Origin: Polynucleobacter sp. JS-Mosq-20-D10
GTDB taxonomy: Bacteria > Pseudomonadota > Gammaproteobacteria > Burkholderiales > Burkholderiaceae
Direction: 5' to 3'
NCBI RefSeq assembly: GCF_018687755.1
Contig: NZ_CP061305.1
Location: 2,019,788 to 2,051,787, forward strand
Length of the DNA stretch: 32,000 nucleotides
The notes under the pieces are model-generated. The model did not search any database. It was not told where the DNA came from and saw nothing but the letters and a program-made list of their open reading frames with translations. Positions 421-31,767 of the stretch are shown piece after piece. The position numbers and the translations under genes are program-made. Within the stretch, counting starts at the first letter, position 1. Every line of letters begins with the position of its first letter.

Positions 421-469
421 TTCTTGGCGGTCAAGAGCAAAGTAGGCTAGCGCCCACGATGCCTGAGCC
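421..469 (-). repeat. tRNA-3'-end-like element (TLE), degenerate copy
   Basis: ttcttggcgg...acgatgcctgagcc matches the head and tail of the consensus. Lies just 3' of gene 482-877. Confidence 0.45.
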
Positions 470-481
470 TATAAAATATTG

Positions 482-877
482 TTACATCTTGATAATGCGC
501 CAAGCACCTTCTGAGCGACCATCACCAGTCTTATCGCCCGGCTTGACATCTTTGACATAGAAATACAAAGGCATGCCGTTAAACGTTAACTGCTTTTTGC
601 CATCATCGCGGGTAATTACTGAATAATCACCAGACACAGCCGGACCACCTTCTGCCAATAGTGGCGGCCAATTGCTTGCGCACATACCATTACAAACTGA
701 CTTACCTGAACCAACGACATCCTTACTATAGGTGTACAAGGTCATACCATTGTTTCCAGCCAATACGCCATCGTTAGCTTTAGTAAATGGTGCTAATGCC
801 ACTCCGGTCATTGATGCACAGGCAGCCAAAATAGCCGCAGCCACCAAAGCCATTAATATACTTTTTATGCGATTCAT
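482..877 (-). CDS. Lipoprotein with Yx(FWY)xxD repeats (secreted repeat family)
   Basis: Track ORF 482..883 starts at GTG. The ATG at 877 follows an AGGGG RBS. Lipobox LAAC. Motifs LYTYSKD...C.G.CA..WPP and LYFYVKD. Confidence 0.7.
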   Translation of the reverse strand: MNRIKSILMALVAAAILAACASMTGVALAPFTKANDGVLAGNNGMTLYTYSKDVVGSGKSVCNGMCASNWPPLLAEGGPAVSGDYSVITRDDGKKQLTFNGMPLYFYVKDVKPGDKTGDGRSEGAWRIIKM

Positions 878-990
878 ATTCACCCCTTTTTGATTGATTT
901 AATACTTTAACCCTTATTGAGATCTATCGCCTTACTAAGCATTGGCCACCAATTGCATCAATAAAAACTGCGAGAAAAAGACTTTTGTAT

Positions 991-1023
991 TTCTTAGTAG
1001 CCCGAGCCTAGATCGACCTGGGC
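991..1023 (-). repeat. TLE, degenerate copy
   Basis: ttcttagtagcccgagcctagatcgacctgggc versus consensus ttcttggtggcccggggcggaatcgaccagggc. Lies 3' of the CBS gene. Confidence 0.5.
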
Positions 1024-1046
1024 TTTAAATTTATTTACAACAAAGA

Positions 1047-1484
1047 CTAAGCTCCGTGACCATGAATGTAAGTTTCTAGAAACTTAATCTGACTACCTTG
1101 ATGTTCAATAATGCTTTTTACTAAATCTCCAACAGAAATCACTCCAACCACTTGAGCTTCCTCTAGAACGGGTAAGTGTCTGATGTGCTTATGAACCATT
1201 ATTGCCATACACTCATCTAATGAGTTAGATAGCGTTACGGTAAGTGGTTTTGCTGTCATTATTTTTGAAACGGCCACTTGTTTTGGATTATTGTTCGGCA
1301 ATAACACTTTTATAGCGCAATCCCCCTGTGACACGATCCCCGCCAAAACACCGTCATCGATAACTAAAATGGCTCTTACTCGATGCTCGCGCATCAGCAT
1401 CAAGACATCTTCTACGGTATCAGATGATCGTACAGAAAAAATGGCTTTCGCTTTTTGCTCAATAACTTGCTTTACTGTTGTCAT
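1047..1484 (-). CDS. CBS-domain pair protein
   Basis: 145 aa with an ATG start and two CBS-like repeats (RAILVIDDGVLAGIVSQGD; HLPVLEEAQVVGVISVGD). Confidence 0.8.
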   Translation of the reverse strand: MTTVKQVIEQKAKAIFSVRSSDTVEDVLMLMREHRVRAILVIDDGVLAGIVSQGDCAIKVLLPNNNPKQVAVSKIMTAKPLTVTLSNSLDECMAIMVHKHIRHLPVLEEAQVVGVISVGDLVKSIIEHQGSQIKFLETYIHGHGA

Positions 1485-1606
1485 AAAAATCTACCTATTA
1501 AATTGAAATTTGAGTGTAGCTGCTGTTGCTTAATCATTTTTTATTTAAGTAAAATAATTATATTCTGAGAAGCCATTCCATCTAAAATAGGATTATCAAG
1601 TTGGGC

Positions 1607-1635
1607 AAAATAAAATAGCCCAACAAGTGGGCTAT
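1607..1635 (-). terminator. Rho-independent terminator following a TLE
   Basis: Stem atagccca/tgggctat, loop acaag. A-run on the plus strand gives a U-run on the minus strand. Confidence 0.6.
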
Positions 1636-1640
1636 TTTGA

Positions 1641-1688
1641 TTCTTGTTGGCTTAGGGTGGAATCGACCAAGAATAAGTGTGTCGAATC
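1641..1688 (-). repeat. TLE copy
   Basis: ttcttgttggcttagggtggaatcgaccaagaataagtgtgtcgaatc. Lies 3' of the FAH gene. Confidence 0.65.
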
Positions 1689-1705
1689 TTTTTATGCCAC
1701 CAATC

Positions 1706-2731
1706 TCAAGCCACGATAAATTTAAGATTGCCCAACTTCTCAATACGCGTTTCAAGTTTATCGCCTGGTTTAAGCCATACCTGTTTTTCTTTAGGGTACC
1801 CTGTAATAACACCCTCAGGCGTGCCGGTAAAAATAATATCGCCCGGCTCTAAGGTAAAAATTTTGGAGGCATAGCTCACAATCTGGGCACAATTAAAAAC
1901 CATGTCGTTAGTATTAGACGACTGACGAACCTCACCATTAACGTATTGCTCTATCTTCAGTTGATTTGGATTTCCAACTAAATCTGATGTCAAAATATAT
2001 GGCCCTATTGGGGCGAATCCATCATTGGTTTTACCAATCATCCACTGACTACTACGTTGCTGTAAATCACGCGCTGTAAAGTCTTGTCCTGTAGCATAGC
2101 CAAATACATATAACAAAGCATCAGCCTCACTAACGTTATATGCACGCTTACCCATCACAATAACCAACTCTGCTTCGTAATCAAACTTTTCTGCGTTGAC
2201 TAATGATGCCTTTACAACGCCGTTATGGCTATTAAGTGTGTTATTGAATTTATTGAATAAAATTGGTAACGTTGGAATGGGATTATTAGTTTCTTTAGCA
2301 TGCTTTGCGTAGTTCAATCCCACGCAGATGATTTTCTCGGGATTGGTAATAGCGGGCGCATATTCGATTTTAGATTCGTCCAAAAACAAATTTTGGCCGC
2401 CCTTGCTCAACGCCAGGCCCACCAGCTTACCTAGACCTTGATCACCATTCTGAATCAAATCATCAGTATTAATTGGCGCCTTAACCTTAAACTGTTTTGC
2501 CGCTTTAGCAACATCTAAAATTCCTTTATCTGTCTTTACGCCTAGAACATATTTATTGTCCACTTTGTAATTTAGAACAGTCATGTTCTTTGCCATGTCA
2601 GGATTGGCAATTCTGATAGCGCCTGCACCAGGTCCAGCTGCCTCAGCCTGATTTGCAATAAAGGGCGTGGTTAGCGCAGCGCCACCGGCTATGGCAGATG
2701 CCTTTAGGAATTCACGTCTTTGGTTGCTCAT
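1706..2731 (-). CDS. Fumarylacetoacetate hydrolase (FAH) family protein with Tat signal
   Basis: SNQRREFLKASAIAGGAAL twin-arginine leader. FDYEAELVIVMGKRA and GDIIFTGTPEGV are typical of the FAH family. GGAGA RBS. Confidence 0.8.
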   Translation of the reverse strand: MSNQRREFLKASAIAGGAALTTPFIANQAEAAGPGAGAIRIANPDMAKNMTVLNYKVDNKYVLGVKTDKGILDVAKAAKQFKVKAPINTDDLIQNGDQGLGKLVGLALSKGGQNLFLDESKIEYAPAITNPEKIICVGLNYAKHAKETNNPIPTLPILFNKFNNTLNSHNGVVKASLVNAEKFDYEAELVIVMGKRAYNVSEADALLYVFGYATGQDFTARDLQQRSSQWMIGKTNDGFAPIGPYILTSDLVGNPNQLKIEQYVNGEVRQSSNTNDMVFNCAQIVSYASKIFTLEPGDIIFTGTPEGVITGYPKEKQVWLKPGDKLETRIEKLGNLKFIVA

Positions 2732-2864
2732 AGTCTCTCCATATTAGATTCTTGTAATTAAAGTTTTTTACTCCGACTAGTAATCTATCATGCGGTTAAC
2801 ATCACTACACTAGGGATTACCCGTCTCTGGTCAAATATAAAACAACACAAAGGTAGTTTTATAT

Positions 2865-2914
2865 TTCATGGTGGCCCGGGGCCAAATCGACCAAGGCTTC
2901 AAGATATCTGAGTC
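2865..2914 (-). repeat. TLE copy
   Basis: ttcatggtggcccggggccaaatcgaccaaggcttcaagatatctgagtc. Abuts the stop codon at 2914-2916. Confidence 0.75.
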
Positions 2915-3504
2915 TATTGGATGTTTTTTTCTTTAATTACTTGCTTAATCATTGGAAGCATATATTGAGACCATTTTTGACAGCCTAGAACTGTCATATG
3001 CCCCCCACCGCCACCAGGAATATCAAACAACCTGTGCTCACTATCAGTTGGAATATTTTTATTCCAATGTCCGTAGTAATGAGCGCCATACTTGGTTGCC
3101 AATTCCTGAGCCTCTTCGTTGCTTTGAATCAAAATATGGGATACATAAATCGTTGGCATATTCTGTTTTTGAAGATAAGCCAAAATCTCCTCTGTAGGGC
3201 CAAGGTTAAATCTAGGATTCTTTTCGTTTGGCCCAGGCTCAAAAATCACTATCTTAGTATTGGGATTGGCCTTTAAGCCCTGCTGCAATCTAGTCATCAT
3301 AAAGGCGGGTCTATCACCATCTACCCCAGCATTAATTACAGTGGCATTAACTTTATCCTGAGCCAATAACTCATTTAGTTTTATCGTGTAGGCTTGACCA
3401 GAATTTTTACAATTTGTGTTACTTGTGCCCAAGGCAAATATCTCAAATCCGAATGAGTTAATTGAGAGCAAAGCCAGGGCCAAAGAAATGATTAGTTTTT
3501 TCAT
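2914..3504 (-). CDS. Secreted SGNH/GDSL-like hydrolase-fold protein (tentative)
   Basis: Signal peptide. GTSNT near the N-terminus, GVDGD in the middle and GGGGHMT near the C-terminus resemble SGNH blocks I, III and V. The assignment is weak. Confidence 0.5.
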   Translation of the reverse strand: MKKLIISLALALLSINSFGFEIFALGTSNTNCKNSGQAYTIKLNELLAQDKVNATVINAGVDGDRPAFMMTRLQQGLKANPNTKIVIFEPGPNEKNPRFNLGPTEEILAYLQKQNMPTIYVSHILIQSNEEAQELATKYGAHYYGHWNKNIPTDSEHRLFDIPGGGGGHMTVLGCQKWSQYMLPMIKQVIKEKNIQ

Positions 3505-3556
3505 AATCGAATACTAACAAACCTAGCTAAAAAACCGTACGAGAATGGTTTTAGTG

Positions 3557-3609
3557 TTTCTTTTTTGGCGTAAGGTGAAATCGAACCACCAACACAAGAA
3601 TTATCGACC
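3557..3609 (-). repeat. TLE copy, subfamily A (pairable T-stem)
   Basis: ggcgtaaggtgaaatcgaaccaccaacacaagaattatcgacc. The minus strand reads GGTGG TTCGATT TCACC. Contains the stop codon at 3601-3603. Confidence 0.7.
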
Positions 3610-3753
3610 TTGACATTCAATTGGAAGATCCCAAAAAGGCTTTCCTGTTCCATAGTTACAACTAACCCCAACCGGCGAACTAGAGCTAGCAAGACAACCG
3701 CCCAAGAACACAACTAACAACATTACAGTGGTCAGCTTTACCAATCGTTTCAT
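3601..3753 (-). CDS. Small lipoprotein (about 50 aa)
   Basis: Internal ATG at 3753 preceded by AAGGGA. MKRLVKLTTVMLLVVFLGGC lipobox. The longer track ORF (to 3813) lacks an RBS. Confidence 0.45.
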   Translation of the reverse strand: MKRLVKLTTVMLLVVFLGGCLASSSSPVGVSCNYGTGKPFWDLPIECQGR

Positions 3754-3863
3754 TTGAAATCCCTTATTTAAACCGTAGGTGTAAATTTTTACACCAAAAT
3801 CTAAAATCGACAAAGGGGGTGCGGATGGAGCATCCTTGTGGTGCTGGACACCACCACATGAGG

Positions 3864-3880
3864 CGTTGTTTAAAACGACG
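3864..3880. repeat. 17-bp palindrome family, near-perfect copy
   Basis: cgttgtttaaaacgacg. One T.G position in the stem. Lies 25 nt 3' of the acyltransferase stop. Confidence 0.7.
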
Positions 3881-3904
3881 TTTCATGGATTTACACCCAA
3901 ATTT

Positions 3905-5776
3905 CTATTCAGTAAATTTTTCAAAAATTTTCTCAGAGCCGGCAATTGATAAGTAGCCCTTGTTTCGATAAAGCAGACCACCCTCAATTCTTAATTGGCA
4001 CTTGTCCTGAATACAAATTTGCTGATATGTATCGAATAATTTAACGTTGGAATTTTCAGCTATCTTAATTAACTCAGTCCTTGCAATGAAGTATTGGGCG
4101 TTTATATCTTTTGCAAGCTGTATACATTCTTTATTAAGAGTCGGCCTAAATGGTGGCATACCAGTGCACTCAATGGGCTCAAAAGATAGGTGCGGCGGAG
4201 GGCTAATGAGTATTGCTTGCTTGCCATTATCTCTGAGGAATTTAATAGTTCTCTCTAACTGGACTTTTTCTAGGCTATTAATAGCCGTTTCACGAAATCC
4301 CAGAATTACCGTTTTTACGCTCTGATCGTGTGCCAATCCAATAATGAGTTGATTCATTTTATGCCCGGTCTCGAGCGAATAATTTTCTGCCTCAGTCTTT
4401 TTAAGAAATGGCTGAGTCCCTGGCCACCCCACCATGGCAAAACTCTTACCAATATTTGAATAATATCGCTCAAGCCCTGAAAAGTGATTATGAGCGATGC
4501 TATCTCCAATTAATACCGTCTCTATATTTTTGCCTACGTAAGATAATCTACAAAAAGTTGGTTGGTAACCTACGAACTCTTGTAAGCAGGCTTTATCTGA
4601 ATGTGGCGGCCTTCCTCCATGAAGATCTAAAACATATTTATGTCTAAAATCTAAGCCATCTCGAACATAAACACTCCACCCTTGATAGCCAATCGACGTC
4701 ATGAGGGCGATCAATAAAACAGCAACTTTTTTGCCCTGATAACGAAACAGTCTCTCCCAATATCTATGCGTAAGATAAGCTAGTCCGATCGCGACTAGGA
4801 TGAGCGCAATTTTATGAAAATCAGATAATTTTCCGGCCGAGATAATTTGTCCAAAGCTTAGCAAAATCCAATGCCACAAATACAATGGGTAGCTAATGAC
4901 TCCCAGCCAAACCATCACATTATTAGAAAGAAATACTCTATTTATACTTGCTTCGCTGTTCGCCGATATTAGTAGAACCGCCCCTACAGTCGGCAATAAT
5001 GCCCACCAACCCGGAAATGAATTTTTACCACTAATCCAAAAAATGGCGATGTTAATCAGTATTAGCCCGACCCAAGAAAACACATTTAAGGCGGCCTGAC
5101 TGAATTGTCTTGCTTCTTGGCTATTTCTAAGTGAAATACATGCCCAAAGTGCGCCAACTAATAACTCCCAAAAGCGACTAAGGGGTGAGTAGAAAGTGGT
5201 GATTGGATCAAATTTAATGTTATAAATATTTATAGAAAATGAAATTAATATTAAGATTAAAACTGCACCCAATAAATTAATTCGAGCCTTGTACAAGATC
5301 CAAATAATTGCTGGCCAAAGTAAATAAAATTGCTCTTCGATAGATAATGACCATAAATGAATTAATGGTTTTGTATCTACGCTTCTTTCAAAGTAGGCGA
5401 TTTCATTTAAAAGAATGAAATTTTGAAAAAAGCCGGCGCTGGCGGCTATATGCTCTCCCACCCCCTTGAATTCTGAGGCATAAAGTGCGAACCAGCCAAA
5501 TGCATAGCATGTTACGAGTATCAAAAATAATGCTGGAAATATTCGTCTGATCCGTCGGAAATAAAACTCTGCAAAGCTAAAACTATTTGACTCTAAATTT
5601 TCTAAAATAATTTTTGTGATTAAAAACCCAGAGATCACAAAAAAAATATCAACGCCTACAAAACCACCACTAACCAAGTTAGGAAATGCGTGGTAGGCAA
5701 TGGTTGAGAGCACGGCTAATGCTCTAAGCCCGTCAATATCCTTGCGATAATTTATAGAGTGGTATTTTAAATACAT
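3905..5776 (-). CDS. Acyltransferase-3 family O-acyltransferase with C-terminal SGNH domain (OafA/YrhL-like)
   Basis: 623 aa. DGLRALAVLSTIAYHAF motif, about 10 TM segments, C-terminal LIGDSIAHNH block. Confidence 0.85.
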   Translation of the reverse strand: MYLKYHSINYRKDIDGLRALAVLSTIAYHAFPNLVSGGFVGVDIFFVISGFLITKIILENLESNSFSFAEFYFRRIRRIFPALFLILVTCYAFGWFALYASEFKGVGEHIAASAGFFQNFILLNEIAYFERSVDTKPLIHLWSLSIEEQFYLLWPAIIWILYKARINLLGAVLILILISFSINIYNIKFDPITTFYSPLSRFWELLVGALWACISLRNSQEARQFSQAALNVFSWVGLILINIAIFWISGKNSFPGWWALLPTVGAVLLISANSEASINRVFLSNNVMVWLGVISYPLYLWHWILLSFGQIISAGKLSDFHKIALILVAIGLAYLTHRYWERLFRYQGKKVAVLLIALMTSIGYQGWSVYVRDGLDFRHKYVLDLHGGRPPHSDKACLQEFVGYQPTFCRLSYVGKNIETVLIGDSIAHNHFSGLERYYSNIGKSFAMVGWPGTQPFLKKTEAENYSLETGHKMNQLIIGLAHDQSVKTVILGFRETAINSLEKVQLERTIKFLRDNGKQAILISPPPHLSFEPIECTGMPPFRPTLNKECIQLAKDINAQYFIARTELIKIAENSNVKLFDTYQQICIQDKCQLRIEGGLLYRNKGYLSIAGSEKIFEKFTE

Positions 5777-5902
5777 AAAACTGTTATTAATAATCGATGT
5801 AGCTCATGAGCCTAAAATTGAATCGTTCCAATTTAACAGCATTTAACCAAATCCATATTGCTTTAAACAATATTGACAGGCACAAGGATGTCTAATTGAT
5901 TC

Positions 5903-5917
5903 ATCCTTTTAAAGGAT
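5903..5917. repeat. Palindrome family, arm-compensated variant
   Basis: atccttttaaaggat. Confidence 0.55.
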
Positions 5918-5977
5918 AGTTCTTGATGGGGGTATCTGAGATTAATAGCGTATAGCCCAACAAGTGGGCCATTGAGA

Positions 5978-6026
5978 TTCTTGGTGGCCCGGGGCAGAAT
6001 CGACTGGGACTGAGGATGTTTGACTC
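5978..6026 (-). repeat. TLE copy
   Basis: ttcttggtggcccggggcagaatcgactgggactgaggatgtttgactc. Confidence 0.8.
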
Positions 6027-6037
6027 TAGCTCAAGAC

Positions 6038-6054
6038 TATCGTTTAAAACGACA
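6038..6054. repeat. 17-bp palindrome family, one outer mismatch
   Basis: tatcgtttaaaacgaca. Confidence 0.75.
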
Positions 6055-6217
6055 TTCATATACGTTGGTAATTTGAGTCTTGATCTTGTGCTTCATATTT
6101 GATAGAGGCCTAAAACCTCTGAGCAAGCATCTCACAAATTATCAGCATCGATTTGACTCGTAGAAATTGGGCTGTTGGCTGATTAATCAATCCTAAATCG
6201 AATCTTCCAATACATCT

Positions 6218-6535
6218 CTAGTCTTGCTTTCTTAAAAAATGTGGGATTGATTCATCACAATCTTTAGCGGTAATGGACTCTACTTCTTTTATGGGGTCTG
6301 ATTTACTAGATATATCAGCACCAACCTCTTGTGCGTAACGGTCGGCTGATTCAGCAAATGCTTCTAATGAGTTATCAAATGCATACAGGTTGCCATCTTC
6401 AATAGCAACAATTTCAACTACGGTGAATTTCAGTTTTGAGGCAAGAATTGCTAAATTGAACCCCCGCTCTTCACGAACCTTACGCAAGCGCTTACCTAGC
6501 AACTTGGCGGCTTTTATTTGTTCTACGCCTGCCAT
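6218..6535 (-). CDS. Helix-turn-helix (XRE/RodZ-like) protein
   Basis: ATG at 6535 preceded by GGAGGGG. LGKRLRKVREERGFNLAILASKL is an HTH-like segment. The track start at 6553 is a GTG without an RBS. Confidence 0.55.
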   Translation of the reverse strand: MAGVEQIKAAKLLGKRLRKVREERGFNLAILASKLKFTVVEIVAIEDGNLYAFDNSLEAFAESADRYAQEVGADISSKSDPIKEVESITAKDCDESIPHFLRKQD

Positions 6536-6642
6536 TGTCCCCTCCAATGGCACGATCTTAATTATTAAAAAAGTTTTTAGATATTAGCCATTAGGTGAAC
6601 AAATGAAGATTATAGGTAGCGTCTGCAGAGATCAATTGACCC

Positions 6643-8064
6643 TTATTGATATGCTTGTGGCAACTTAATGACAAATCTAGCTCCACCCGCAACAGCATCC
6701 TCATATTGGATAAAGCCTCCATACCTAGTGACGATATGCTTACAAAGCCATAGTCCCAGACCCATACCAGTCTGCTTGGTAGTGCTCAATAACTCAAATA
6801 GTTGAGATTTGAAGTCCGCAATTACACCTGGGCCATTGTCAGAAACACTTAATTGAACCGACTTACCATCCCTAATGGCATCTATAACTATACGACGCTG
6901 GAGCGTGCCGGAATTTGCCAATGCTTGAATCGCGTTATTGAGCAAATTTAATATCACTTGTTCAATTTCTGCCGAATTAACCTGAATAAGTAAACCATTA
7001 TCAACTTGAAGCTGAATTTGGATATTTTTAGACTTGAGTTCCGGCTTAACAATATCTAGAACTTTTTCTATCAAATCACCCAACAGAACTTTTTGAGTAT
7101 TCGATTCACCTTCTGTAAATATTGACCTCAGTGACTTAACAATCGTAGCGGCTCTCTTGTTATCTTGCTCTAGGGAGTCTAAGATTTCTTTACCCAGCTC
7201 CGGATTAAGAACCCCCTTTTCTAGCTTCATTTTCAGAAACTGAATGTTGAGATTAGATGCGCCAAGAGGCTGGTTGAGTTCGTGGGCAATCGATGCAGAT
7301 AAGGCGCCAGTTGCCGCGGTTTTATTCGCTTTCATCAGGCCGTAGATGAGTCGCTCTTTTTCTTTTAAGAGCTCAGTAATTTTTTCATGTTCGCCAGCGA
7401 CTTGAATATTTTCAATGCTGAGCTTTTCTAGCCAATAACCAAGAACTGCTACATAAGATAGGATGGAGATGCCAAGCCACGCCCATCTAATTGACGCACT
7501 AACTACACCTTCTTGATATAAGTTAGGAGTAGAGAACCCACCATCAATATACAAAGCTACAAACCTAGCAACGGTAAGGGCTATCTCGATAGCGATGGTG
7601 TAAACCAAAAACCGGAGTTGAGTCGAGCCAATTCCTTTGAGACGCATTAACTCCTTTAGCTCCCAAACAAAACAGAGGGCTCCTATTATGCTGACCAAAC
7701 CAACCCTTTGTATAAATAATCCCCTTTGTCTTAAGTACTCAAATAAAACAGCGAAAAACAACAAGCCCGCAAGAACAAGCATGTTCACATTTTTTGGGAT
7801 CAAAATACTAAGAGAGCGACAAAATAATCCAAAGTAAATAAAGCTTGCAATAAAACATGTGTTTGCTAATGTAAGCAAGAATAAAGATATTGTTGACGCT
7901 AATGCGAAGAGCGTAAAGGAAGTAGCAGTAAGCGTGAGGGCGGTTAGCCAGAGTTTTTTGGACTGGTTAGTTTTGCCCGACATTAATATGAACCTTGAGC
8001 CGTAAAGTAATCCCCATAGGATCAGAGCAAAAACAAGGAAGAATATTTCGTTTGCGTATTTCAT
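6643..8064 (-). CDS. Sensor histidine kinase with multi-pass membrane N-terminus (no cognate response regulator nearby)
   Basis: H-box SASIAHELNQPL, N-box LLNNAIQA, G1 DNGPGV, G2 GMGLGL. About 6 TM helices in the first 210 aa. Confidence 0.85.
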   Translation of the reverse strand: MKYANEIFFLVFALILWGLLYGSRFILMSGKTNQSKKLWLTALTLTATSFTLFALASTISLFLLTLANTCFIASFIYFGLFCRSLSILIPKNVNMLVLAGLLFFAVLFEYLRQRGLFIQRVGLVSIIGALCFVWELKELMRLKGIGSTQLRFLVYTIAIEIALTVARFVALYIDGGFSTPNLYQEGVVSASIRWAWLGISILSYVAVLGYWLEKLSIENIQVAGEHEKITELLKEKERLIYGLMKANKTAATGALSASIAHELNQPLGASNLNIQFLKMKLEKGVLNPELGKEILDSLEQDNKRAATIVKSLRSIFTEGESNTQKVLLGDLIEKVLDIVKPELKSKNIQIQLQVDNGLLIQVNSAEIEQVILNLLNNAIQALANSGTLQRRIVIDAIRDGKSVQLSVSDNGPGVIADFKSQLFELLSTTKQTGMGLGLWLCKHIVTRYGGFIQYEDAVAGGARFVIKLPQAYQ

Positions 8065-8831: not shown

Positions 8832-8858
8832 ATTTAGGGCACCTCTAGGTAAGGATAT

Positions 8859-22908: not shown

Positions 22909-22917
22909 TTGTGAGTT

Positions 22918-24671: not shown

Positions 24672-24700
24672 ATTTTTTGACTGTCTAAGAAAGGAATCTC

Positions 24701-25045: not shown

Positions 25046-25048
25046 ACC

Positions 25049-25621
25049 ATGTCTGGATCTTTAGTAATTGATACAAGCGAATTCTTGGCGGCATTAATCA
25101 GACTAAAACCTGTTGCCCCTAGACGCAGGAAAACAACTCGTATTGGTATTGCTAAAAAAGTTATTGAGGATGATTTTTATATTTCCTTTTTATTTGGGGA
25201 AGCTGTCTTTAGTAGTCATGGTGTACAAACAAGGTGCGTAGTTGAAAAGGCAAACTGGCGGGGCTATGTCAGCACTGACTTTGGTATGGTGCTTACCTTT
25301 CTTAAAGGTAAGCCCTCAGGCAAAACGGTCACCATTTCTTTTCTTGGTAACAAATTAAAAATCGAATCCTTAACTATTGCCTGTCAATGGGCGCCAGTCC
25401 CTGACTGGATTGGGGAAATGAGCACCGAAGCTCTTTTTCTAAGCGAGAAGGCCAAGATAAAAGAAGATCTTATGTACTGTCCCAAGTGTGGAAAAAGACA
25501 AATTATTGTCTTAAGTCATAAGCCACACATGCAACTGGAGCTCGACTCTCCAAAGTTACCGAAGATCCTACCTAATCGCCAATGTAAATCCTGCAAGCAT
25601 GGCTGGTTAGAAATCTCATAA
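25049..25621 (+). CDS. Hypothetical protein with C-terminal zinc-ribbon (CPKCG...CKSCKHG)
   Basis: Starts 3 nt after the previous stop. Two CxxC pairs at the C-terminus. Confidence 0.55.
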   Translation: MSGSLVIDTSEFLAALIRLKPVAPRRRKTTRIGIAKKVIEDDFYISFLFGEAVFSSHGVQTRCVVEKANWRGYVSTDFGMVLTFLKGKPSGKTVTISFLGNKLKIESLTIACQWAPVPDWIGEMSTEALFLSEKAKIKEDLMYCPKCGKRQIIVLSHKPHMQLELDSPKLPKILPNRQCKSCKHGWLEIS

Positions 25622-25634
25622 ATGACGAGAAATT

Positions 25635-25880
25635 ATGAAGAACATAACTATTAGAAACTGTACCTTTGCCTTTCGCTGTAAAGCGAACTGGGATGCCATG
25701 ACGCAAACAGATACGGAGGGTAAAGTTCGCTTTTGTTTGGACTGCCAAAAAGAAGTTTTTTTATGTGAAAACGATGAAGAGCTAATTAGCAACGTAGTGA
25801 ACAATCGCTGTATCGCATTGATACGAGAAGAGCGCGGTCAGTCACGCAGGTTGCTCGGCGAAGTGATCAATAGAGGCTAA
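25635..25880 (+). CDS. Small Cys-rich protein
   Basis: 81 aa. C-x5-C...C-x2-C-x7-C pattern (NCTFAFRC...FCLDCQKEVFLC). Confidence 0.5.
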   Translation: MKNITIRNCTFAFRCKANWDAMTQTDTEGKVRFCLDCQKEVFLCENDEELISNVVNNRCIALIREERGQSRRLLGEVINRG

Positions 25881-25882
25881 CT

Positions 25883-26413
25883 ATGAAGAAAAGTCTTTAC
25901 ATCACCTTAGCCATAATCCTAGCAACACCTTTCACAGCATATTTGGTGATCCAATGTATCGATCCGTCAGATCCTGATTTGGTCTATGTTAAAAAGCCCA
26001 GTCTGTTTTCTGGTGCGTGGCAAAAAGTAGCCTACTCCGATAACTTTTCTGAATATATTGAGCCTAAAAAAATGGCGAGGAATTTAGATTCGACAGTAGA
26101 TATAGTAACGATGAGAAATTACTTTAAGCCTCAGTTAGACGACGATAGCGACAAAAGTATCAGTTATAAATCCCAAGTCTCTTATGAAACTATCGACTGC
26201 TTCAATCAAACAGTTACCGTCACTAAGATGTATCGATTGAGCGAGCAGTTTACTAAAGGATCTTTAATTGACGAGCCTATTGAACCAGTCTCTACCCCCA
26301 TCCGCGTTAATGCTCGATCAATTGGTTTTAGCAAAATTCGTAAAGTCTGCGAATTATCTAATTTATCTACCGATCCTCAGTATATTAAAAGTAGCTTTAT
26401 GAATAGCATTTAA
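25883..26413 (+). CDS. Membrane-anchored or secreted hypothetical protein
   Basis: GAGG RBS and an N-terminal hydrophobic helix. Starts 2 nt after the previous stop. Confidence 0.55.
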   Translation: MKKSLYITLAIILATPFTAYLVIQCIDPSDPDLVYVKKPSLFSGAWQKVAYSDNFSEYIEPKKMARNLDSTVDIVTMRNYFKPQLDDDSDKSISYKSQVSYETIDCFNQTVTVTKMYRLSEQFTKGSLIDEPIEPVSTPIRVNARSIGFSKIRKVCELSNLSTDPQYIKSSFMNSI

Positions 26414-26478
26414 AAATACATAACGAGCTAGTAATCACCTATAGTTATAGAAACTGTGTTTATTTCAGGAAATGAGCA

Positions 26479-27447
26479 ATGAGTGACCTAGAGCGCCTCC
26501 ATCGCATCAAATATATGATTCAGGCCCGCAAATGCGTGCCCATTCAAGACTTCCTAGAAGAGCTTGAAATCTCTAAGGCCACCTTTAAGCGTGATTTAGA
26601 GTATCTAAGAGACAGGATGAATGCCTCAATCATCTTTGATCGTTCCGAAGGTGGTTATCGCTTTGATAAACCTAATTCGGGAGAAAAGATTGAACTACCA
26701 GGATTATGGTTCTCGGAAAAAGAAGTAACCGCCCTTGTACTAATGCAACATCTTCTATCAGGCTTAGATAAAGGGGGGTTGATTGAACCACACATTGCTC
26801 CACTTACCTCAATCATTGATGGCATTCTTGGGCAAAGTAACACTCCAGCAAAAGAACTGCGTAAGAGACTAAAAGTATTTGGAATGTCGTCACGTAAAAG
26901 TTCTATCGAAAGTTTTGAAGAAGTTGGTAATGCTCTCCTAACTCGCAAAAGGCTTCACATTACCTACTATGCACGCGGCAAAGATGAAACCACTGAGCGT
27001 GAAATATCTCCACAACGATTAATCTTTTATAGAGATAACTGGTATCTAGATGCCTACTGTCACCTACGGAATGATTTGCGTAGCTTTGCCGTGGACTGTA
27101 TTGGCAAGGTAATCATTACTAATATAAAGGCAGATGAAATTTCAGAAAAACAATTACACGAACACTTTGCAGAAAGCTATGGAATTTTCTCAGGCAAAGC
27201 TATTCAACGTTGCAAGTTAAAGTTCTCGCCTGAAAAGGCTAGATGGGTAAGTGCCGAGACTTGGCATGGCCAACAGGTTGGCACTTTCGACAAAGAAGGC
27301 AACTACCTTCTAGAGTTTGATTACAACCAAGATCCAGAATTGGTAATGGATATATTGAAACATGGGGCAGGGGTTGAGGTTTTGGCGCCAGCAAGTTTAC
27401 GTAAGCGGGTTCAAGACGAACTTTTAAAAGCATTAAGTAACTATTAA
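26479..27447 (+). CDS. WYL-domain transcriptional regulator (HTH-WYL-WCX, YafY/BrxR/CapW-like)
   Basis: N-terminal wHTH (VPIQDFLEELEISKATFKRDLEYLR) and a literal WYL motif (FYRDNWYLDAYCHLRNDLRSF). Confidence 0.85.
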   Translation: MSDLERLHRIKYMIQARKCVPIQDFLEELEISKATFKRDLEYLRDRMNASIIFDRSEGGYRFDKPNSGEKIELPGLWFSEKEVTALVLMQHLLSGLDKGGLIEPHIAPLTSIIDGILGQSNTPAKELRKRLKVFGMSSRKSSIESFEEVGNALLTRKRLHITYYARGKDETTEREISPQRLIFYRDNWYLDAYCHLRNDLRSFAVDCIGKVIITNIKADEISEKQLHEHFAESYGIFSGKAIQRCKLKFSPEKARWVSAETWHGQQVGTFDKEGNYLLEFDYNQDPELVMDILKHGAGVEVLAPASLRKRVQDELLKALSNY

Positions 27448-27603
27448 ACGTCTGGTAACTAGATGCTTTATTCAAAGGTTGATTATTTTTACTTTATGAT
27501 TTAACCTATTAATACATCAAGAGATGGCTTAGTCGCCACAGCAACCTGCTAACGCAGTAAGGTGCTAAAAAGATGAGGCTCCCAGTGAGCAATCAAAGCG
27601 ACT

Positions 27604-27628
27604 AACCCACCCATTGGTGGGTTTTTTT
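27604..27628 (+). terminator. Rho-independent terminator about 155 nt after the WYL gene
   Basis: aacccacc-catt-ggtgggtt, followed by ttttt. Confidence 0.7.
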
Positions 27629-27690
27629 ATTGGCGATTTAACTCAACTTGCTAAGCCAGACATTCGTCAAATTAGCTAAAAGGAGGAAGT

Positions 27691-28050
27691 ATGACTATCT
27701 ATGAATTTAGAGAATGGCGCTTTAGACTAGGACTAACTACAGAGGCTTCCGCTGAGCTCTTAGGGGTTTCAAAAGATGCCGTATTGGGCTGGGAGCTTGG
27801 TAAGCATCCAATTACAAAGCAGACCCGCCTAGCAACATTAGCTTGTGAACTTGCCTATATTGCCGCAGACCAATATGTAAAGGCTCACCCTTATCCATCA
27901 GTCAACAACGGGATTAAAAACTTTGTAGCACATTCTGGAAGGAAAAAAATTAGAGAGGGCATCATCAATGGAAGGAATCCCATTGAAAGAGAGTTATCAA
28001 TACTTCTCGCGCCTAAGTCCCTCATCCACTGTGAGGGCAAGAGATCATGA
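27691..28050 (+). CDS. XRE-type HTH protein
   Basis: Strong RBS AAGGAGGA. FRLGLTTEASAELLGVSKDAVLGWELGK. Confidence 0.65.
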   Translation: MTIYEFREWRFRLGLTTEASAELLGVSKDAVLGWELGKHPITKQTRLATLACELAYIAADQYVKAHPYPSVNNGIKNFVAHSGRKKIREGIINGRNPIERELSILLAPKSLIHCEGKRS

Positions 28051-28724
28051 AAACAAATGAATTTGCGTTTTACCGAAAACGAATCCGTCAAACCCAAGAG
28101 AAGATCGCTGAAGTTCTCAATATCCCTCTAGATATCTATATCGAAATTGAGGATAACAAACGAGAGCCTTCTCAGCAGGTTAGAGAGGCTTTTGGTTCTC
28201 TATTAGCCAGGTTTCCAGGAAGTACAGACCTATCAAGGCCTAAGATTAAGGCGATTGATGAATATAAAGTTCAATACCAATTTAAAACTGGGAAACTGCC
28301 CGTTGGTAAGCATTGGATTCCATTCAATATTTTAGGATGTAAAAAGGTATTGATTGATTTCAGTCCATACGATGATGATCTAGATAAAGGAGTAATTAAG
28401 ACAGAAAAGGAGATGTGGAATTGGATAAATGCTCATGACATATCACCCGTAATTACTCCCGAGTATTTCAATCACCTTACCACTCTAAATAATCGTGAAC
28501 TTCAGGAAGAGGTTGATTTTTGGGATAGATTCTATACAGCTCAGCATTATGGGAAATATAAGTCTAGAACAACGCCAAAAGAACTTGAGGAGCAAATCTC
28601 GAAAAAGAAAGAGCGTACTAGAGCATATTGGATAGATAAGGCTAATCGGGTTTTAATAAAAACTCTACTTGGACTTATTGCTTTATGGGGGTTGGCTCAC
28701 CTAATAGTTTTTTTAGATAAATGA
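28047..28724 (+). CDS. XRE-type HTH protein with C-terminal transmembrane anchor
   Basis: ATGA overlap with the upstream gene. N-terminal IRQTQEKIAEVLNIPLDIYIEIE and C-terminal VLIKTLLGLIALWGLAHLIVFL. Confidence 0.6.
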   Translation: MKTNEFAFYRKRIRQTQEKIAEVLNIPLDIYIEIEDNKREPSQQVREAFGSLLARFPGSTDLSRPKIKAIDEYKVQYQFKTGKLPVGKHWIPFNILGCKKVLIDFSPYDDDLDKGVIKTEKEMWNWINAHDISPVITPEYFNHLTTLNNRELQEEVDFWDRFYTAQHYGKYKSRTTPKELEEQISKKKERTRAYWIDKANRVLIKTLLGLIALWGLAHLIVFLDK

Positions 28725-28740
28725 AGTGCTGGTAATGAAG

Positions 28741-28757
28741 TGTCCTTTAAAAGGACA
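28741..28757. repeat. Palindrome family, arm-compensated variant
   Basis: tgtcctttaaaaggaca. Lies 17 nt after the stop at 28724. Confidence 0.7.
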
Positions 28758-28926
28758 TTACATGAAAAGGGTACCCCGAGCAATGCCACCCCTATAGTTG
28801 AAACGGTCAAACAGGATTCTCAATCCCCACCACTAGATTAGAAGCTCTGGGCAATGACATAAGGCGCTGGAACTAAGGTGGTGGCACCATTGCTTAACTT
28901 AGACGCAAATAGCTAGGGTAGAAATG

Positions 28927-28955
28927 AAAAAAGAGAGCTAGAAGCTCTCTTTTTG
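28927..28955. terminator. Bidirectional terminator hairpin following a TLE
   Basis: aaaaaagagagc-tagaa-gctctcttttt. Confidence 0.7.
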
Positions 28956-29006
28956 AATCTTGGTGGCCCGGGGCGGAATCGAACCAGGGCCGAGGATGCC
29001 TGATCC
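28956..29006 (-). repeat. TLE copy, subfamily B
   Basis: aatcttggtggcccggggcggaatcgaaccagggccgaggatgcctgatcc. 29 bp (28958-28986) are identical to 11882-11910. Confidence 0.9.
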
Positions 29007-29062
29007 AAGCTCTTTTTAATTTCGTTGTACTCAAATCGAGCTTTTGGATTTACCTTGGAATG

Positions 29063-29464
29063 TTACTGAGCCCATTGCTCACAAAGTACAGTTGGGTTTC
29101 CATAGCCCCGCCCATTTTCCATTCCAGAATTCATGCAATAGTTAAATCTTTCTAAAGCACGCCCAGTTAAGCCTGTGTTGTATACGCCCGCTCCTGACGT
29201 TCCTACTGAAGGAGGCGGCCCCCCGGAGCAAACCAATTGACCGTTTTGTGCAGAGATATTCGTACATTGGGTGGCATTTGTAAGTCTTGCCGCTACCCAT
29301 TGGCCTCGCCCATTCTGACAAGACGCTACCATAGTTGTCCCCTCCATAGCTGATGCTTGACATGAATTAGACCAATTGCCAGGAATCATTCGATATGGCT
29401 GAGCATTTGTCTGAAATGCAAGAAGTGTGAAGAAAGTAAAAACCGATACTCTAAGAAATAACAT
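29063..29464 (-). CDS. Secreted cysteine-rich protein (possible CVNH-like lectin half-repeat; tentative)
   Basis: Signal peptide. W.NSC...G..MVASCQNGRGQW....L.....N..GQL.C resembles the CVNH spacing. Confidence 0.55.
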   Translation of the reverse strand: MLFLRVSVFTFFTLLAFQTNAQPYRMIPGNWSNSCQASAMEGTTMVASCQNGRGQWVAARLTNATQCTNISAQNGQLVCSGGPPPSVGTSGAGVYNTGLTGRALERFNYCMNSGMENGRGYGNPTVLCEQWAQ

Positions 29465-29583
29465 GGCAGTTCCTTTTAATTATTTAAATATCCGTTGGTG
29501 ATAAGAACAAACTTAATCTCCCTCTCTTTGGAGGCTGTACTTCAGAGTGAAGTCATACTGTCTGGCAAAAAGCATGCTGGACA

Positions 29584-30822
29584 TTAACGCAAGAGAATTC
29601 CTGGTGATGCTGGGATACTGCCAGGGACTTTATTAAGGCTTAATAATTGCGAAATAATCTTCAAGACCATTGGCGAATAGCCGTTATCGTTTGCTGGAAT
29701 ACTATGAACATCGTCATCAATATTTTTTACTCTTGCAAAATTTTTATTACTTGAGTCATTTTTTCTGACAATCAATAAGGCATATTGATTTTCTTGGCCG
29801 ATTTTTCGAGCTTGAGTAGTTGCTGATGGAGGCAATGTAACAATGAAGGGGTTTTCTTGATTCTGGGCGGATACTACCTGTCCAAGATATTCGAAGACTG
29901 TATTGGGTGATCGAATGGTTAAGATTAGTTCAGATTTAGAGCTCTTATTTTTAGGGGCGTTTAGACTTGCTTTGCAAAAAATGTCAGAGCTAAATTCTTC
30001 TTTAACAAAGTTGGCAAATTTGTTCTCATCAACGCAAATCTTAAATTGAGGTTGCAGTTGCATTTGGCCGTACATTGCACCATAAGCACCGGATGATCCA
30101 CCATACCCACCTGGACTTTGATAAGGCGATGGCATGTTAGGTTGTGAATAGTTTGCTGTTCTACCTAATGCAGGAGAACTATTTTTCTTTGGCCCCTCTT
30201 TGACCTGATCAACAGTCAAGCCGTAACTTAGCAACTTATAAAGCTCGGCTTGGAAGGCGGGATATTCTGGTAAAAGCGGATTGTTTATATACCGAGTAGA
30301 TTTACCATCAGCTTGCTTAATTTCAATTGAAGCAACTACTAGACTAAACATTACCTCTCTCGGGATATTATCGGAAATAAAAAACTTGGCAGTTCCAATA
30401 GGGATTTGAGATAAAAATCCTTGCAGAAAAGTGGCATTATCAAGTGAGGACTGGGAAAAGTTAAAACTATTACCAAAAGATGGGTTGAGACTCGGGCTAA
30501 ATGAGCTTATGCCAAGAGGGCCGCCTGCAAGCCCTCCAATGAATCCATTCATTGATGGACCTAATCCTGTATTAAAACTTACATTTCCAGATCCATTGAT
30601 GCTGGGAATATCTAGAAAACTTAACGGGCGCTCATTGGATGCGCGGATGATATTAATCAGGATGCTATTTAATTGGTACTGCTCCAAAATGACGGCGTAG
30701 CGTGCCGACATCTCTGTAAAGTCTGGAGTGACGGGAGTAGTGCAACCCCCAATCAATATTGTTATTGAAATTGAGCTACAAATTGCTTTGATGCCATTAA
30801 TGATGGTGGAATTCACTGACAC
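29584..30822 (-). CDS. Lipoprotein, Gly/Ser/Pro-rich, unknown function
   Basis: GTG start, lipobox LIGGC, 412 aa. Confidence 0.6.
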   Translation of the reverse strand: MSVNSTIINGIKAICSSISITILIGGCTTPVTPDFTEMSARYAVILEQYQLNSILINIIRASNERPLSFLDIPSINGSGNVSFNTGLGPSMNGFIGGLAGGPLGISSFSPSLNPSFGNSFNFSQSSLDNATFLQGFLSQIPIGTAKFFISDNIPREVMFSLVVASIEIKQADGKSTRYINNPLLPEYPAFQAELYKLLSYGLTVDQVKEGPKKNSSPALGRTANYSQPNMPSPYQSPGGYGGSSGAYGAMYGQMQLQPQFKICVDENKFANFVKEEFSSDIFCKASLNAPKNKSSKSELILTIRSPNTVFEYLGQVVSAQNQENPFIVTLPPSATTQARKIGQENQYALLIVRKNDSSNKNFARVKNIDDDVHSIPANDNGYSPMVLKIISQLLSLNKVPGSIPASPGILLR

Positions 30823-30959
30823 CCCAAGAATTGAACTATGTTCGAAATCTAGGGCGGTAGGTTTGGCAGAATGCCAAGTCAGCTCAGAGGTCTGTTGGAA
30901 TCATACTAACTGATTACAGTTGGTGATGGAGTAGAGAAAGGGTAAACACTTGAAATATT

Positions 30960-30976
30960 TGTCGTTTAAAACGACA
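30960..30976. repeat. 17-bp palindrome, perfect
   Basis: tgtcgtttaaaacgaca. Confidence 0.9.
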
Positions 30977-31058
30977 TCGCAAGCACCGGCCCTAGATGAC
31001 AGTCGCTTAAATAGACGCAGGACCGACACAGGGATGACAAATCCCCAATAAATAAAGC

Positions 31059-31073
31059 GTCCTTTTAAAGGAC
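31059..31073. repeat. Palindrome family, arm-compensated variant
   Basis: gtccttttaaaggac. Confidence 0.65.
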
Positions 31074-31158
31074 AGTTCATGATGGGGGGATGTGAACGGC
31101 AACTGTAAACCATGTGGTCGGTACCGGATGTAAACCATGTGTCCGGTACGTACCAGTG

Positions 31159-31209
31159 TTTCTTGGTGGCCCGGGGCGGAGTCGAACCAGGGCCGAGGAT
31201 GCCTGATTC
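31159..31209 (-). repeat. TLE copy, subfamily B
   Basis: tttcttggtggcccggggcggagtcgaaccagggccgaggatgcctgattc. Confidence 0.9.
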
Positions 31210-31293
31210 AAAGAATTGAGCCCACAAAAGTTGATTTTTAGTGCCCTTAATCATTGGTGATAATAAAGATATCTATTCTAGAAAAAAGAGGCT

Positions 31294-31620
31294 ATGGTAA
31301 CAATCATGCTCAAATATTTATCTAACATCGATAAAGCAAGGTCAACCAATAAAAACTATCGCATAAACGATAGGCAAGCATTCATCCTGGACTATATATG
31401 TGAAAAACATCTTTCCCATAAGGTCTGCCACATCCAAGAGATTATTTTATTAAAAACAGTTGGATCTCAGGCAACGCTTCATGCTGTTACAAAAGTTCTG
31501 GCTAAACTAGGTCTGATTCAAGTTAGGATCGATCCGGTTGATAACAGAATGAAAAATGTTCTGCCAACCCCTCTAGCTCTACAACGTTTAAAGACTTTAG
31601 TAGCTATTTTTCAGAAATAG
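31294..31620 (+). CDS. MarR-like winged-helix regulator (short)
   Basis: AGAGG RBS. IQEIILLKTVGSQATLHAVTKVLAKLGLIQVRIDPVDNRMKNV resembles the MarR recognition helix and wing. Confidence 0.55.
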   Translation: MVTIMLKYLSNIDKARSTNKNYRINDRQAFILDYICEKHLSHKVCHIQEIILLKTVGSQATLHAVTKVLAKLGLIQVRIDPVDNRMKNVLPTPLALQRLKTLVAIFQK

Positions 31621-31680
31621 CCCTTAAGCAATACCACATAGCAACGTCATACTAATCAACGGAACCTCATCCGCCCGACC

Positions 31681-31715
31681 AAAAGAAAATGCCCCGCACG
31701 GAGCAGGGCATTATT
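31681..31715. terminator. Bidirectional terminator between the MarR-like gene and a TLE
   Basis: aaaagaaaatgccc-cgcacggagc-agggcattattt. Confidence 0.6.
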
Positions 31716-31716
31716 T

Positions 31717-31767
31717 GAGTTTGGTGGCCCGGGGCGGAATCGACCAGGGCATCAGGATATCTGACTC
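31717..31767 (-). repeat. TLE copy, subfamily B
   Basis: gagtttggtggcccggggcggaatcgaccagggcatcaggatatctgactc. Confidence 0.85.

Follow-up and report, generated by a model that had tools for sequence, protein, structure and literature searches.

Why does the 3' end of a tRNA gene recur, always the same way round, between unrelated genes of a freshwater bacterium? We examined this question in a 32,000-nt stretch of the genome of Polynucleobacter sp. JS-Mosq-20-D10 (NZ_CP061305.1, positions 2,019,788-2,051,787, forward strand), hereafter the window, within whose 32,000 nt all coordinates are counted. An original prediction, made from the letters of this stretch, had described thirteen same-orientation copies of a tRNA-like repeat and offered three explanations: decayed attachment (att) scars of tRNA-targeting elements, accumulated in a tycheposon-like building process; a mobile tRNA-derived repeat; or a processing signal in the 3' untranslated region (UTR) of transcripts. 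We consider it very likely that the array records one site-specific integration after another at the tRNA-Phe gene, and that the window covers the inner and distal part of an additive island lying 3' of that gene. The repeats mark successive insertions, which brought in roughly twelve small gene cassettes and, at 17 kb, a larger mobile element, here called element X. What we observed directly is the parentage of the repeats, the geometry of their arrays, junctions that fall within the repeat core, rules of co-inheritance for the flanks, a gradient of decay and an association with integrases.

Repeat copies in the window

Our comparison set comprised 241 sources, namely the window and 240 related stretches of genomes and freshwater metagenomes, which are labelled with L-numbers. 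Related loci were retrieved with exact-match patterns, in 8-kb blocks, and many of the metagenome units are interdependent. A second retrieval scanned metagenomes for the junction between the arm and core described below, and a profile was then run over all 241 sources. Among the labelled stretches, L241 is a complete 2.05-Mb genome (CP061314.1), L244 a lake contig and L251 an IMG/VR contig of 13065 bp.

A 21-nt core pattern with up to three mismatches matched the window five times, compared with 0.00 times in 100 shuffles. Fuzzy searching yielded ten copies, every match lying on the plus strand, and an nhmmer profile recovered the identical ten (E 7e-13 to 1.7e-5), which start at 1648, 2869, 3566, 5982, 10088, 10677, 11885, 28961, 31164 and 31722. 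A scan with the 22-nt core added a decayed copy at 995-1016, and a further copy at about 423-470 has lost its core and retained its arm and terminator. The total is 12 copies, ten clear and two decayed, plus arm-only relics at 5877-5897 and about 8120-8145; the predicted single-strand series is real and not a product of chance, and its count of thirteen was near the mark.

Read in the tRNA sense, which is the minus strand of the window, a typical copy consists of an arm (tAGGATyAGrCATCCTmGGCCCTGG), the core (T)TCGATTCCGCCCCGGGCCACCA, which is at least 90% conserved, the letters AGAA, and a hairpin with a T-run. The arm had been taken for some 25 nucleotides foreign to tRNA; in fact it is homologous, though diverged, to two parts of tRNA-Phe, the anticodon arm and the variable loop, and aligns with them (GGATTGAGCATCCTTGGCCCTGG versus GGATTGAAAATCCTTGTGTCGGTGG). 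A canonical 7-nt T-loop had also been described: it is present in five of the ten clear copies, the other five reading GG-TCGATTCC with a 6-nt loop, and among non-redundant copies of the wider sample the 6-nt form is the more frequent (136 versus 72). Two further descriptions agree with the sequences, in that no window copy has a D arm or a 5' acceptor strand, and copies 3566 and 11885 preserve a T-stem and an anticodon-arm remnant. Core mismatches number zero or one in copies from 11885 upward, and the lowest-coordinate copies have two to eight or no recognisable core.

Hairpin-and-T-run terminators of several unrelated sequence types follow most copies, much as had been noticed, with copy 31164 followed by a tandem repeat instead. 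An automated terminator test came out at 19%, which is an undercount: in the minimum-energy fold the T-tract is paired to an A-tract upstream of it, so that the T tail required by the test disappears; the terminator claim rests on inspected sequences, the consensus and a separate terminator scan. The tandem repeat after copy 31164 (31102-31160) consists of two ~24-nt copies (GTAAACCATGTG.TC.GGTAC), and an equal arrangement is found in L241 at ~8282-8340. The copies are as follows.

31722-31770, minus strand: tRNA-Phe 3' fragment with arm and perfect 22-nt core, 6-nt T-loop form; GCCCCGC-type terminator at ~31681-31712
31164-31211, minus strand: tRNA-Phe 3' fragment with majority arm and 1 core mismatch; upstream junction of a two-gene cassette shared with L241
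28961-29008, minus strand: tRNA-Phe 3' fragment with majority arm and perfect core; GAGAGC-type terminator at ~28925-28952
11885-11932, minus strand: anticodon-loop-type fragment, 45 nt of tRNA to CCA, 0 core mismatches; CCACC-type terminator at 11854-11875
10677-10723, minus strand: tRNA-Phe 3' fragment with 3 core mismatches and 6-nt loop; CCACC-type terminator at 10646-10667
10088-10133, minus strand: tRNA-Phe 3' fragment with 1 core mismatch and the arm nearest to the tRNA anticodon arm; terminator at ~10052-10080
5982-6029, minus strand: tRNA-Phe 3' fragment with 1 core mismatch and 6-nt loop; TAGCCCA-type terminator at ~5950-5975, then a conserved module at 5877-5945
3566-3612, minus strand: old, decayed anticodon-loop-type fragment with 8 core mismatches; decayed terminator at ~3526-3560
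2869-2917, minus strand: tRNA-Phe 3' fragment with 2 core mismatches; AT-rich hairpin at 2833-2864
1648-1690, minus strand: tRNA-Phe 3' fragment with 5 core mismatches; TAGCCCA-type terminator at 1611-1639
995-1030, minus strand: decayed fragment with 7 core mismatches, from the 22-nt core scan
423-470, minus strand: most distal and most decayed fragment, core lost; arm and CCACC-type terminator (402-419) kept

A tRNA-Phe(GAA) parent

We searched for the parent gene by scanning one genome per bacterial species with TGGTGGCCCGRGGCGGARTCGA, which matched at least 120 stretches, nearly all from Burkholderiales. ARAGORN, applied to these matches, identified the core pattern as the 3' end of tRNA-Phe(GAA). 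Among the matches listed, most genera have a single one, the gene itself, and Polynucleobacter and uncultured freshwater betaproteobacteria frequently have several per 8-kb block. ARAGORN found zero tRNA genes within the window; we expect the intact tRNA-Phe gene past coordinate 32000, encoded on the minus strand.

Individual copies can be matched to genuine genes. Copy 11885 and its terminator share 97-98% identity with the 3' part and terminator of genuine tRNA-Phe genes in L041, L116 and L114, whose bearers are P. sinensis, P. aenigmaticus and a Polynucleobacter metagenome-assembled genome. Intact tRNA-Phe genes differ in terminator by strain, and the CCACC, TAGCCCA, GAGAGC and GCCCYGC types that they carry are the same four that follow copies in the window: copy 31722 shares its terminator with the intact gene of L037 and copy 28961 with that of L016, and the terminator and module of copy 5982 also stand after the intact gene of L036. 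Copy 11885 matches the tRNA from the anticodon loop (45 nt) and the majority match it from the T-loop (22-23 nt), which are canonical crossover positions. Judged by sequence, each repeat reproduces the last 22-48 nt of a Polynucleobacter-like Burkholderiales tRNA-Phe(GAA) gene, so the original recognition of a tRNA 3' end on the minus strand was correct and the parent tRNA that it called for has been found.

Arrays and junctions across strains

The profile located 463 fragments in the 241 sources; 110 sources hold at least two, and orientation is mixed in only one. Spacing between fragments has a median of 950 bp and is below 1.2 kb in 65% of cases. In 31 of the 32 loci holding both an intact tRNA-Phe gene and fragments, all fragments lie 3' of the gene and in the same orientation. 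Across 52 arrays, core mismatches average 0.27 in the tRNA-proximal copy versus 1.88 in the distal copy (Wilcoxon p = 3e-5). The chromosomal position beside the tRNA is constant between strains and the cassette set is variable, which is the pattern of an additive flexible genomic island. The main open reading frame (ORF) is co-oriented with the fragment in 121 of 188 units (64%) and opposite in 36% of cassettes.

All-versus-all alignment of fragment-centred segments showed where shared sequence ends. Alignments that share the upstream side stop 0-10 nt past CCA in 257 of 383 cases, and those that share the downstream side begin within the arm or core in 580 of 632. The terminator therefore travels together with the downstream cassette, the arm belongs to the upstream cassette, and the junction is the core. 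Arms are conserved over hundreds of unrelated cassettes, each with a whole arm on one side and a whole terminator on the other, and this points to selection on a functional site.

A cassette between copies 28961 and 31164 displays these rules at base level.

29009-31163, minus strand: two-gene cassette with ORFs of 412 and 133 aa, beginning with a conserved module (palindromes at 31058 and 30960)

This cassette is 97.6% identical to L241 8256-10510 and 97-99% identical to its counterparts in L242-L245, with homology stopping in the cores at both sides. The window, L241 and L244 are identical through the cassette end, arm and core to ACCAAGA except for one arm base; past ACCAAGA they diverge into three different terminators and neighbours, and on the upstream side identity begins at the core's GGTTCGA. 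One junction is differently occupied in different strains, and one cassette recurs in differing neighbourhoods, joined in the core. A between-strain comparison of presence and absence at element borders had been proposed as a check on the repeats, and for this cassette it was positive.

Element X and its integrases

We read positions 11933-28960 as a single 17-kb element X that entered via an anticodon-loop crossover, and copy 11885 as its right junction (attR). Its left junction, on the same reading, was originally the tRNA itself, as L016 still shows, and became copy 28961 through later T-loop-type insertions. Its main features are as follows.

11933-28960, minus strand: element X, 17-kb integrative element with cargo (relatives L007, L177, L246, L160 and L157)
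12905-13372: DUF6641 gene
13508-13643, plus strand: Polynucleobacter-1 RNA (RF01718)
14746-15312, plus strand: int188, a 188-aa tyrosine recombinase with the catalytic domain only, FimB/Xer-like by NCBIfam, below cut-offs
17431-18099: AAA clamp-loader-like ATPase
18351-22891: restriction-modification (RM) cargo
22918-24192, minus strand: int424, a 424-aa tyrosine integrase that matches phage integrase families
27509-27606, plus strand: SAM-I/IV riboswitch, in the left-hand cargo

int424 matched generic integrase profiles only; a PDB sequence search with it gave no match, and viral contigs gave a single weak partial one. Its family often adjoins the tRNA gene or a fragment, with homologues directly 3' of an intact tRNA-Phe or a fragment in L063, L108, L206, L195 and L122. 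In L241 (1899-3495) and L187 (675-2268) an int424-family integrase is divergent and lies ~270-280 nt 5' of the intact tRNA-Phe, opposite the array, an integron-like layout that is not general. The distance between int424 and copy 28961 in the window is 4.7 kb. int188 is always found with int424 and in the opposite orientation, in ten or more further loci (L177, L007, L246, L160, L157, L187, L206, L240, L159 and L041); it scored 44 bits on an integron-integrase model with a cut-off of 265 bits, a model to which int424 had no match. Searches of element X gave no primase, helicase or polymerase match, its only replication-like gene being the clamp-loader-like ATPase.

Element X also carries RNA and repeat features. 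RF01718, an orphan Rfam family, keeps its position near int188 in L177 (10109-10244), L246 (3184-3320), L157 (3715-3852) and L160 (10401-10538), and is present in all close relatives of element X whose sequence includes the region; the Polynucleobacter-1 RNA therefore rides on a mobile element. The SAM-I/IV riboswitch stands upstream of a small helix-turn-helix (HTH) protein (27691-28050) and a 225-aa protein without a family match (28047-28724), an unusual context for a SAM riboswitch, and recurs in the equivalent cargo region of L160 (2468-2565). At 24447-24551, about five tandem 21-nt repeats (CCWTACAACATGSRWAAC...) encode a heptapeptide repeat in the ORF 24369-24671, whose counterpart in L246 is a 100-aa ORF called HU-like.

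The plain tRNA core occurs in nine stretches of viral contigs, of which eight contain an intact tRNA-Phe gene and one is L251. In L251 an identical 51 nt, made up of tRNA-Phe from the anticodon loop to CCA and of AGAATA, stands at 1-51 and at 13015-13065. L251 must be a circular element that has this attP or else a prophage after excision, and in both cases the tRNA-Phe anticodon-loop site is used by virus-like elements too.

Proposed growth of the island by serial integration

The island could have grown as follows. An incoming circle would carry a three-part attachment site composed of a ~25-nt arm, the 22-nt core and a terminator of its own. The arm would be a diverged copy of the tRNA anticodon arm and variable loop, and the core would correspond to the tRNA from T-loop to CCA, element X using instead 45 nt from the anticodon loop. 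An int424-family tyrosine integrase would recombine the core with the tRNA gene, which would be rebuilt with the newcomer's core and terminator; the previous 3' end and its terminator would be shifted downstream, behind the newcomer's arm. Repetition would yield core, terminator-genes-arm, core and so on, in one orientation and with the newest unit adjoining the tRNA, and distal cores, no longer needed, would decay. We infer that circles were the intermediates and that int424-type enzymes catalysed the exchange. Small cassettes without an integrase (0.4-1.2 kb) may have been moved in trans as circles, and would then be not merely deletion remnants or the result of reshuffling by homologous recombination.

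Several points weigh against this account. An identity of 22 nt could support rare homologous recombination with the same breakpoint pattern. One junction, that of the glutathione S-transferase (GST) cassette, breaks between hairpin and T-tract and not in the core (window 11808-11880 versus L084 7479-7560): conservation with L084 is 90% over the GST gene and the sequence 5' of it, reaching as far as the T-tract of the upstream terminator, and hairpin, fragment and arm differ, the terminator being of the CCACC type in the window and of the TAGCCCA type in L084. A terminal-overlap search of metagenome contigs gave no circular form and no junction of arm and core with their own terminator, and the majority arm-core junction had 0 matches in viral contigs. 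Most small cassettes are without an integrase, and most arrays are without any in the sequenced stretch. Finally, exact-match retrieval of loci skews the sample toward well-preserved cores, and the intact tRNA-Phe lies outside the window, whose tie to the gene is drawn from relatives.

Serial integration corresponds to the first of the explanations originally offered. The parent gene, the 3' position, the decay gradient, the breakpoints in the core and the integrase all support att sites and a tycheposon-like building process; the description as decayed scars does not hold for the tRNA-proximal copies, which are perfect and can probably still serve in recombination.

Serial integration explains a conspicuous repeat family without any new RNA function, and gives an unusually clean base-level view of the way in which accessory genes are kept and exchanged, via one tRNA entry point, in a freshwater bacterium that is both streamlined and abundant. 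The array would be a time-ordered record of insertions, each unit bringing the last 22 nt of the tRNA and a fresh terminator. Core, arm and terminator types could serve as markers to follow cassette turnover in lake metagenomes, and the array supplies testable substrates for an uncharacterised integrase family. Should small cassettes indeed move in trans, the locus would be a natural analogue of an integron built on a tRNA gene.

Cassettes, palindromes and a conserved module

The cassettes in 471-11853 and 29009-31721 contain no integrase and stand in tandem with element X. In addition to the two-gene cassette, they and the sequence beyond them hold the following.

10724-11853, minus strand: cassette with GST (11124-11807) and tautomerase (10715-11104), GST flank conserved in L084
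10134-10645, minus strand: single-gene cassette with a BLUF blue-light sensor (10170-10568)
6030-10051, minus strand: composite cassette with patatin (8902-10008), histidine kinase (6643-8064) and HTH protein (6218-6553)
3613-5876, minus strand: cassette with an AT3-SGNH acyltransferase (3905-5776)
2914-3504: ORF of the cassette upstream of copy 2869
1706-2731: FAA hydrolase gene, in the cassette upstream of copy 1648
1047-1484: CBS-domain gene, in the cassette upstream of copy 995
482-883: Lipoprotein_15 gene, in the cassette upstream of copy 423
3-272: sodC, beyond copy 423; L006 has a sodC homologue past its own array

The composite cassette encloses a relic at ~8120-8240, in which the remnant of a terminator is accompanied by a palindrome and by an arm-like piece. 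An exact-protein look-up of the FAA hydrolase returned no matching record.

A near-perfect 17-nt palindrome, TGTC[G/C]TTT[A/T]AAA[C/G]GACA, occurs 11 times in the window versus 0.01 expected, starting at 6038, 8149, 12098, 15696, 16623, 18334, 22892, 24005, 28741, 30960 and 31058. Its enrichment on the island side of tRNA-Phe is 7-fold. Most copies stand where the downstream cassette begins, 50-200 nt from the core on its 3' side, often inside a ~130-nt module with an arm-like piece. This conserved module follows the terminator in about one quarter of cassettes (window 5877-5945, ~8120-8240 and ~31040-31100). Its order is GGCTTGGCAGGG...GGATATCCCCATCTAGAAC, the palindrome CGTCCTTTAAAAGGACA, an arm-like piece ending in GTCGA, and the palindrome TGTCGTTTAAAACGACA; the module could be a long arm of the attachment site.

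One-sided homology between loci stops at the palindrome's far edge, and the RM cargo of element X stands between two palindromes.

18334-22908: RM module with five ORFs, two of them encoding DNA methyltransferases, between two palindromes TGTCGTTT(A/T)AAACGACA

The empty site of this 4.5-kb cargo, with a single palindrome, is present in L007 (4030-4046) and L246 (7909-7925). Another indel, which spans 386 bp (15311-15696), has a palindrome at its edge too, and the perfect palindrome at 24005 lies inside the int424 N-terminal coding region and is conserved in L246. A systematic search for one palindrome at an empty site versus two around an insert returned seven ambiguous cases only. As a candidate -35 element the palindrome was rejected: a -10 element at 16-18 nt was not in excess when the sense and antisense sides were compared. 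The palindrome may be a recombination site or a protein-binding site.

These observations suggest a speculative extension of serial integration, which we hold with low confidence. It would be a two-level platform at the tRNA-Phe locus of Polynucleobacter and related freshwater Burkholderiales, in which integrase-less, often single-gene circles with a ~100-230-bp site of arm, core and terminator are inserted, excised and reordered at the tRNA-Phe core by the int424 family acting in trans, and the palindrome TGTCGTTTAAAACGACA acts as a second recombination site that loads cargo such as the RM genes (18351-22891) into cassettes and element X, its recombinase being perhaps the FimB-sized int188.

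Alternative explanations

Might the array be an active, integron-like platform, with the 3' end of tRNA-Phe as its primary site, the ~50-nt arm-core unit as a cassette-borne site and a trans-acting int424-type integrase that captures, excises and reorders single-gene circles as a regular adaptive mechanism? Units of 950 bp in the median, 65% of them below 1.2 kb, would suit such a platform, as would the recurrence of one cassette beside differing neighbours, joined to them in the core, the arms shared by unrelated cassettes, the divergent integrases beside the tRNA in L241 and L187, and the gene-orientation bias. That bias, however, is merely 64%, and most loci are without a resident integrase beside the tRNA. 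Distal cores decay and so are not maintained; every cassette opens with a terminator, which leaves no common promoter logic; the metagenome contigs yielded no circles; and integron-defining features are absent, as the score of int188 illustrates. We regard a platform of this kind as possible but doubtful.

We think it somewhat unlikely that the array holds pure scars reworked by homologous recombination, in which case only big, integrase-bearing elements would have integrated, small cassettes would be deletion remnants, and RecA would have driven exchange between cores after transformation or transduction. The core is the sole perfectly shared stretch, so the same breakpoints would be expected, and the decay of distal cores, the rarity of integrases in arrays and the odd GST breakpoint are all compatible with it. 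Random deletion, on the other hand, would not keep an arm and a terminator on hundreds of cassettes, and arms are conserved though such recombination needs none. An identity of 22 nt is moreover at the lower limit for RecA-dependent exchange.

A role in RNA, as a tRNA-like 3'-UTR module for RNase P, RNase Z or the CCA-adding enzyme or as an mRNA stabiliser ahead of the terminator, was the third of the explanations first proposed and now appears very improbable. It could draw on the layout of positions 1-12000, where 11 of 12 genes share the fragments' orientation and fragments lie between stop codon and terminator, and on the possible GGCCC/GGGCC pairing. The fragments themselves speak otherwise: the 5' acceptor strand is absent, and most copies have a 6-nt T-loop on a 3-bp T-stem. 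No covariation was detected, with 88.3% of cells paired versus 87.6% when shuffled and double changes in 7 of 858, so that pairing is explained by column conservation, and folding z-scores were unremarkable (-0.25, 0.03, -1.13 and 0.28). The main ORF is on the other strand in 36% of cassettes, distal copies decay, and Rfam matched nothing at the repeat copies.

A dispersed tRNA-derived repeat spreading by its own transposition, in the manner of a miniature inverted-repeat transposable element (MITE), a repetitive extragenic palindrome (REP) or a short interspersed element (SINE), has many copies and a conserved 50-nt unit in its favour and deserves almost no credence, since the copies form one-orientation arrays 3' of tRNA-Phe in 31 of 32 retrieved loci and so stand beside one tRNA and are not dispersed, terminal inverted repeats and target-site duplications are absent, and flanks are co-inherited as an att junction predicts; of the mobile repeat first proposed, what survives is an attachment site carried on mobile cassettes.

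Comparison with known systems

A literature search found no account of this tRNA-Phe locus in Polynucleobacter, although Hoetzinger et al. 2017, on Polynucleobacter islands, might describe it. Additive flexible genomic islands are known at tRNA genes, including tRNA-Phe in Alteromonas (PMC4898812), and a tRNA-Lys island has been described in the case of Methylopumilus. Like these, the array has a fixed tRNA hot spot, cassettes that vary by strain, a tRNA 3' repeat downstream of each and cargo that is mostly accessory or of unknown function; unlike the Methylopumilus island, it involves a different host lineage and a different tRNA. The co-inheritance of arm and terminator, the replacement terminators and the decay gradient are not spelled out in the additive-island papers and are resolved here.

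The ssrA islands of Dehalococcoides offer a close parallel, with tandem units that follow a single small-RNA gene, direct repeats of ~20 bp taken from the 3' end of that gene, and a conserved motif just upstream of each repeat that is unmatched in the gene; insertion was inferred in the T-loop region, and some units without an integration module were discussed as cis-mobilizable elements (PMC3146451). Those islands differ in their serine recombinase (DsiB, CcrB-like), their tmRNA target and their units of kilobases to tens of kilobases, whereas the tRNA-Phe array is associated with a tyrosine integrase family and has many single-gene units. As expected of cis-mobilizable elements (CIMEs) and accretion, att-flanked units without an integrase stand in tandem with the integrase-bearing element X. 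In the tycheposons of Prochlorococcus, repeated integration at tRNA genes lets newer elements push older ones inward and scatters partial tRNAs and remnants (bioRxiv 10.1101/2020.12.28.424599). Tycheposons are defined by replication genes and a specific clade of tyrosine recombinases (or a large serine recombinase); in element X, primase, helicase and polymerase searches were negative.

As in tDNA islands mapped by Islander (PMC4383910), the island is delimited by the tRNA in its regenerated form and by a 3' fragment that was displaced. Unlike those islands, the array strings together numerous junctions, the majority with no integrase beside them. Crossovers at tRNA genes are reportedly sorted into classes by a sublocation scheme that Williams put forward in 2002 and that PMC3146451 cites. 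Two crossover classes are seen here, at the anticodon loop (copies 11885 and 3566) and from the T-loop to the 3' end (the majority).

In outline the array also resembles integron arrays, with short, often single-gene units, a conserved recombination site and one primary site. Unlike integrons, it has no IntI, no attC (imperfect palindromes ending in GTTRRRY) and no common promoter, and its orientation bias is 64%; it is not an integron. The tRNA-Phe array fits the already-described additive flexible genomic island kind, as do the Dehalococcoides ssrA and tycheposon islands.

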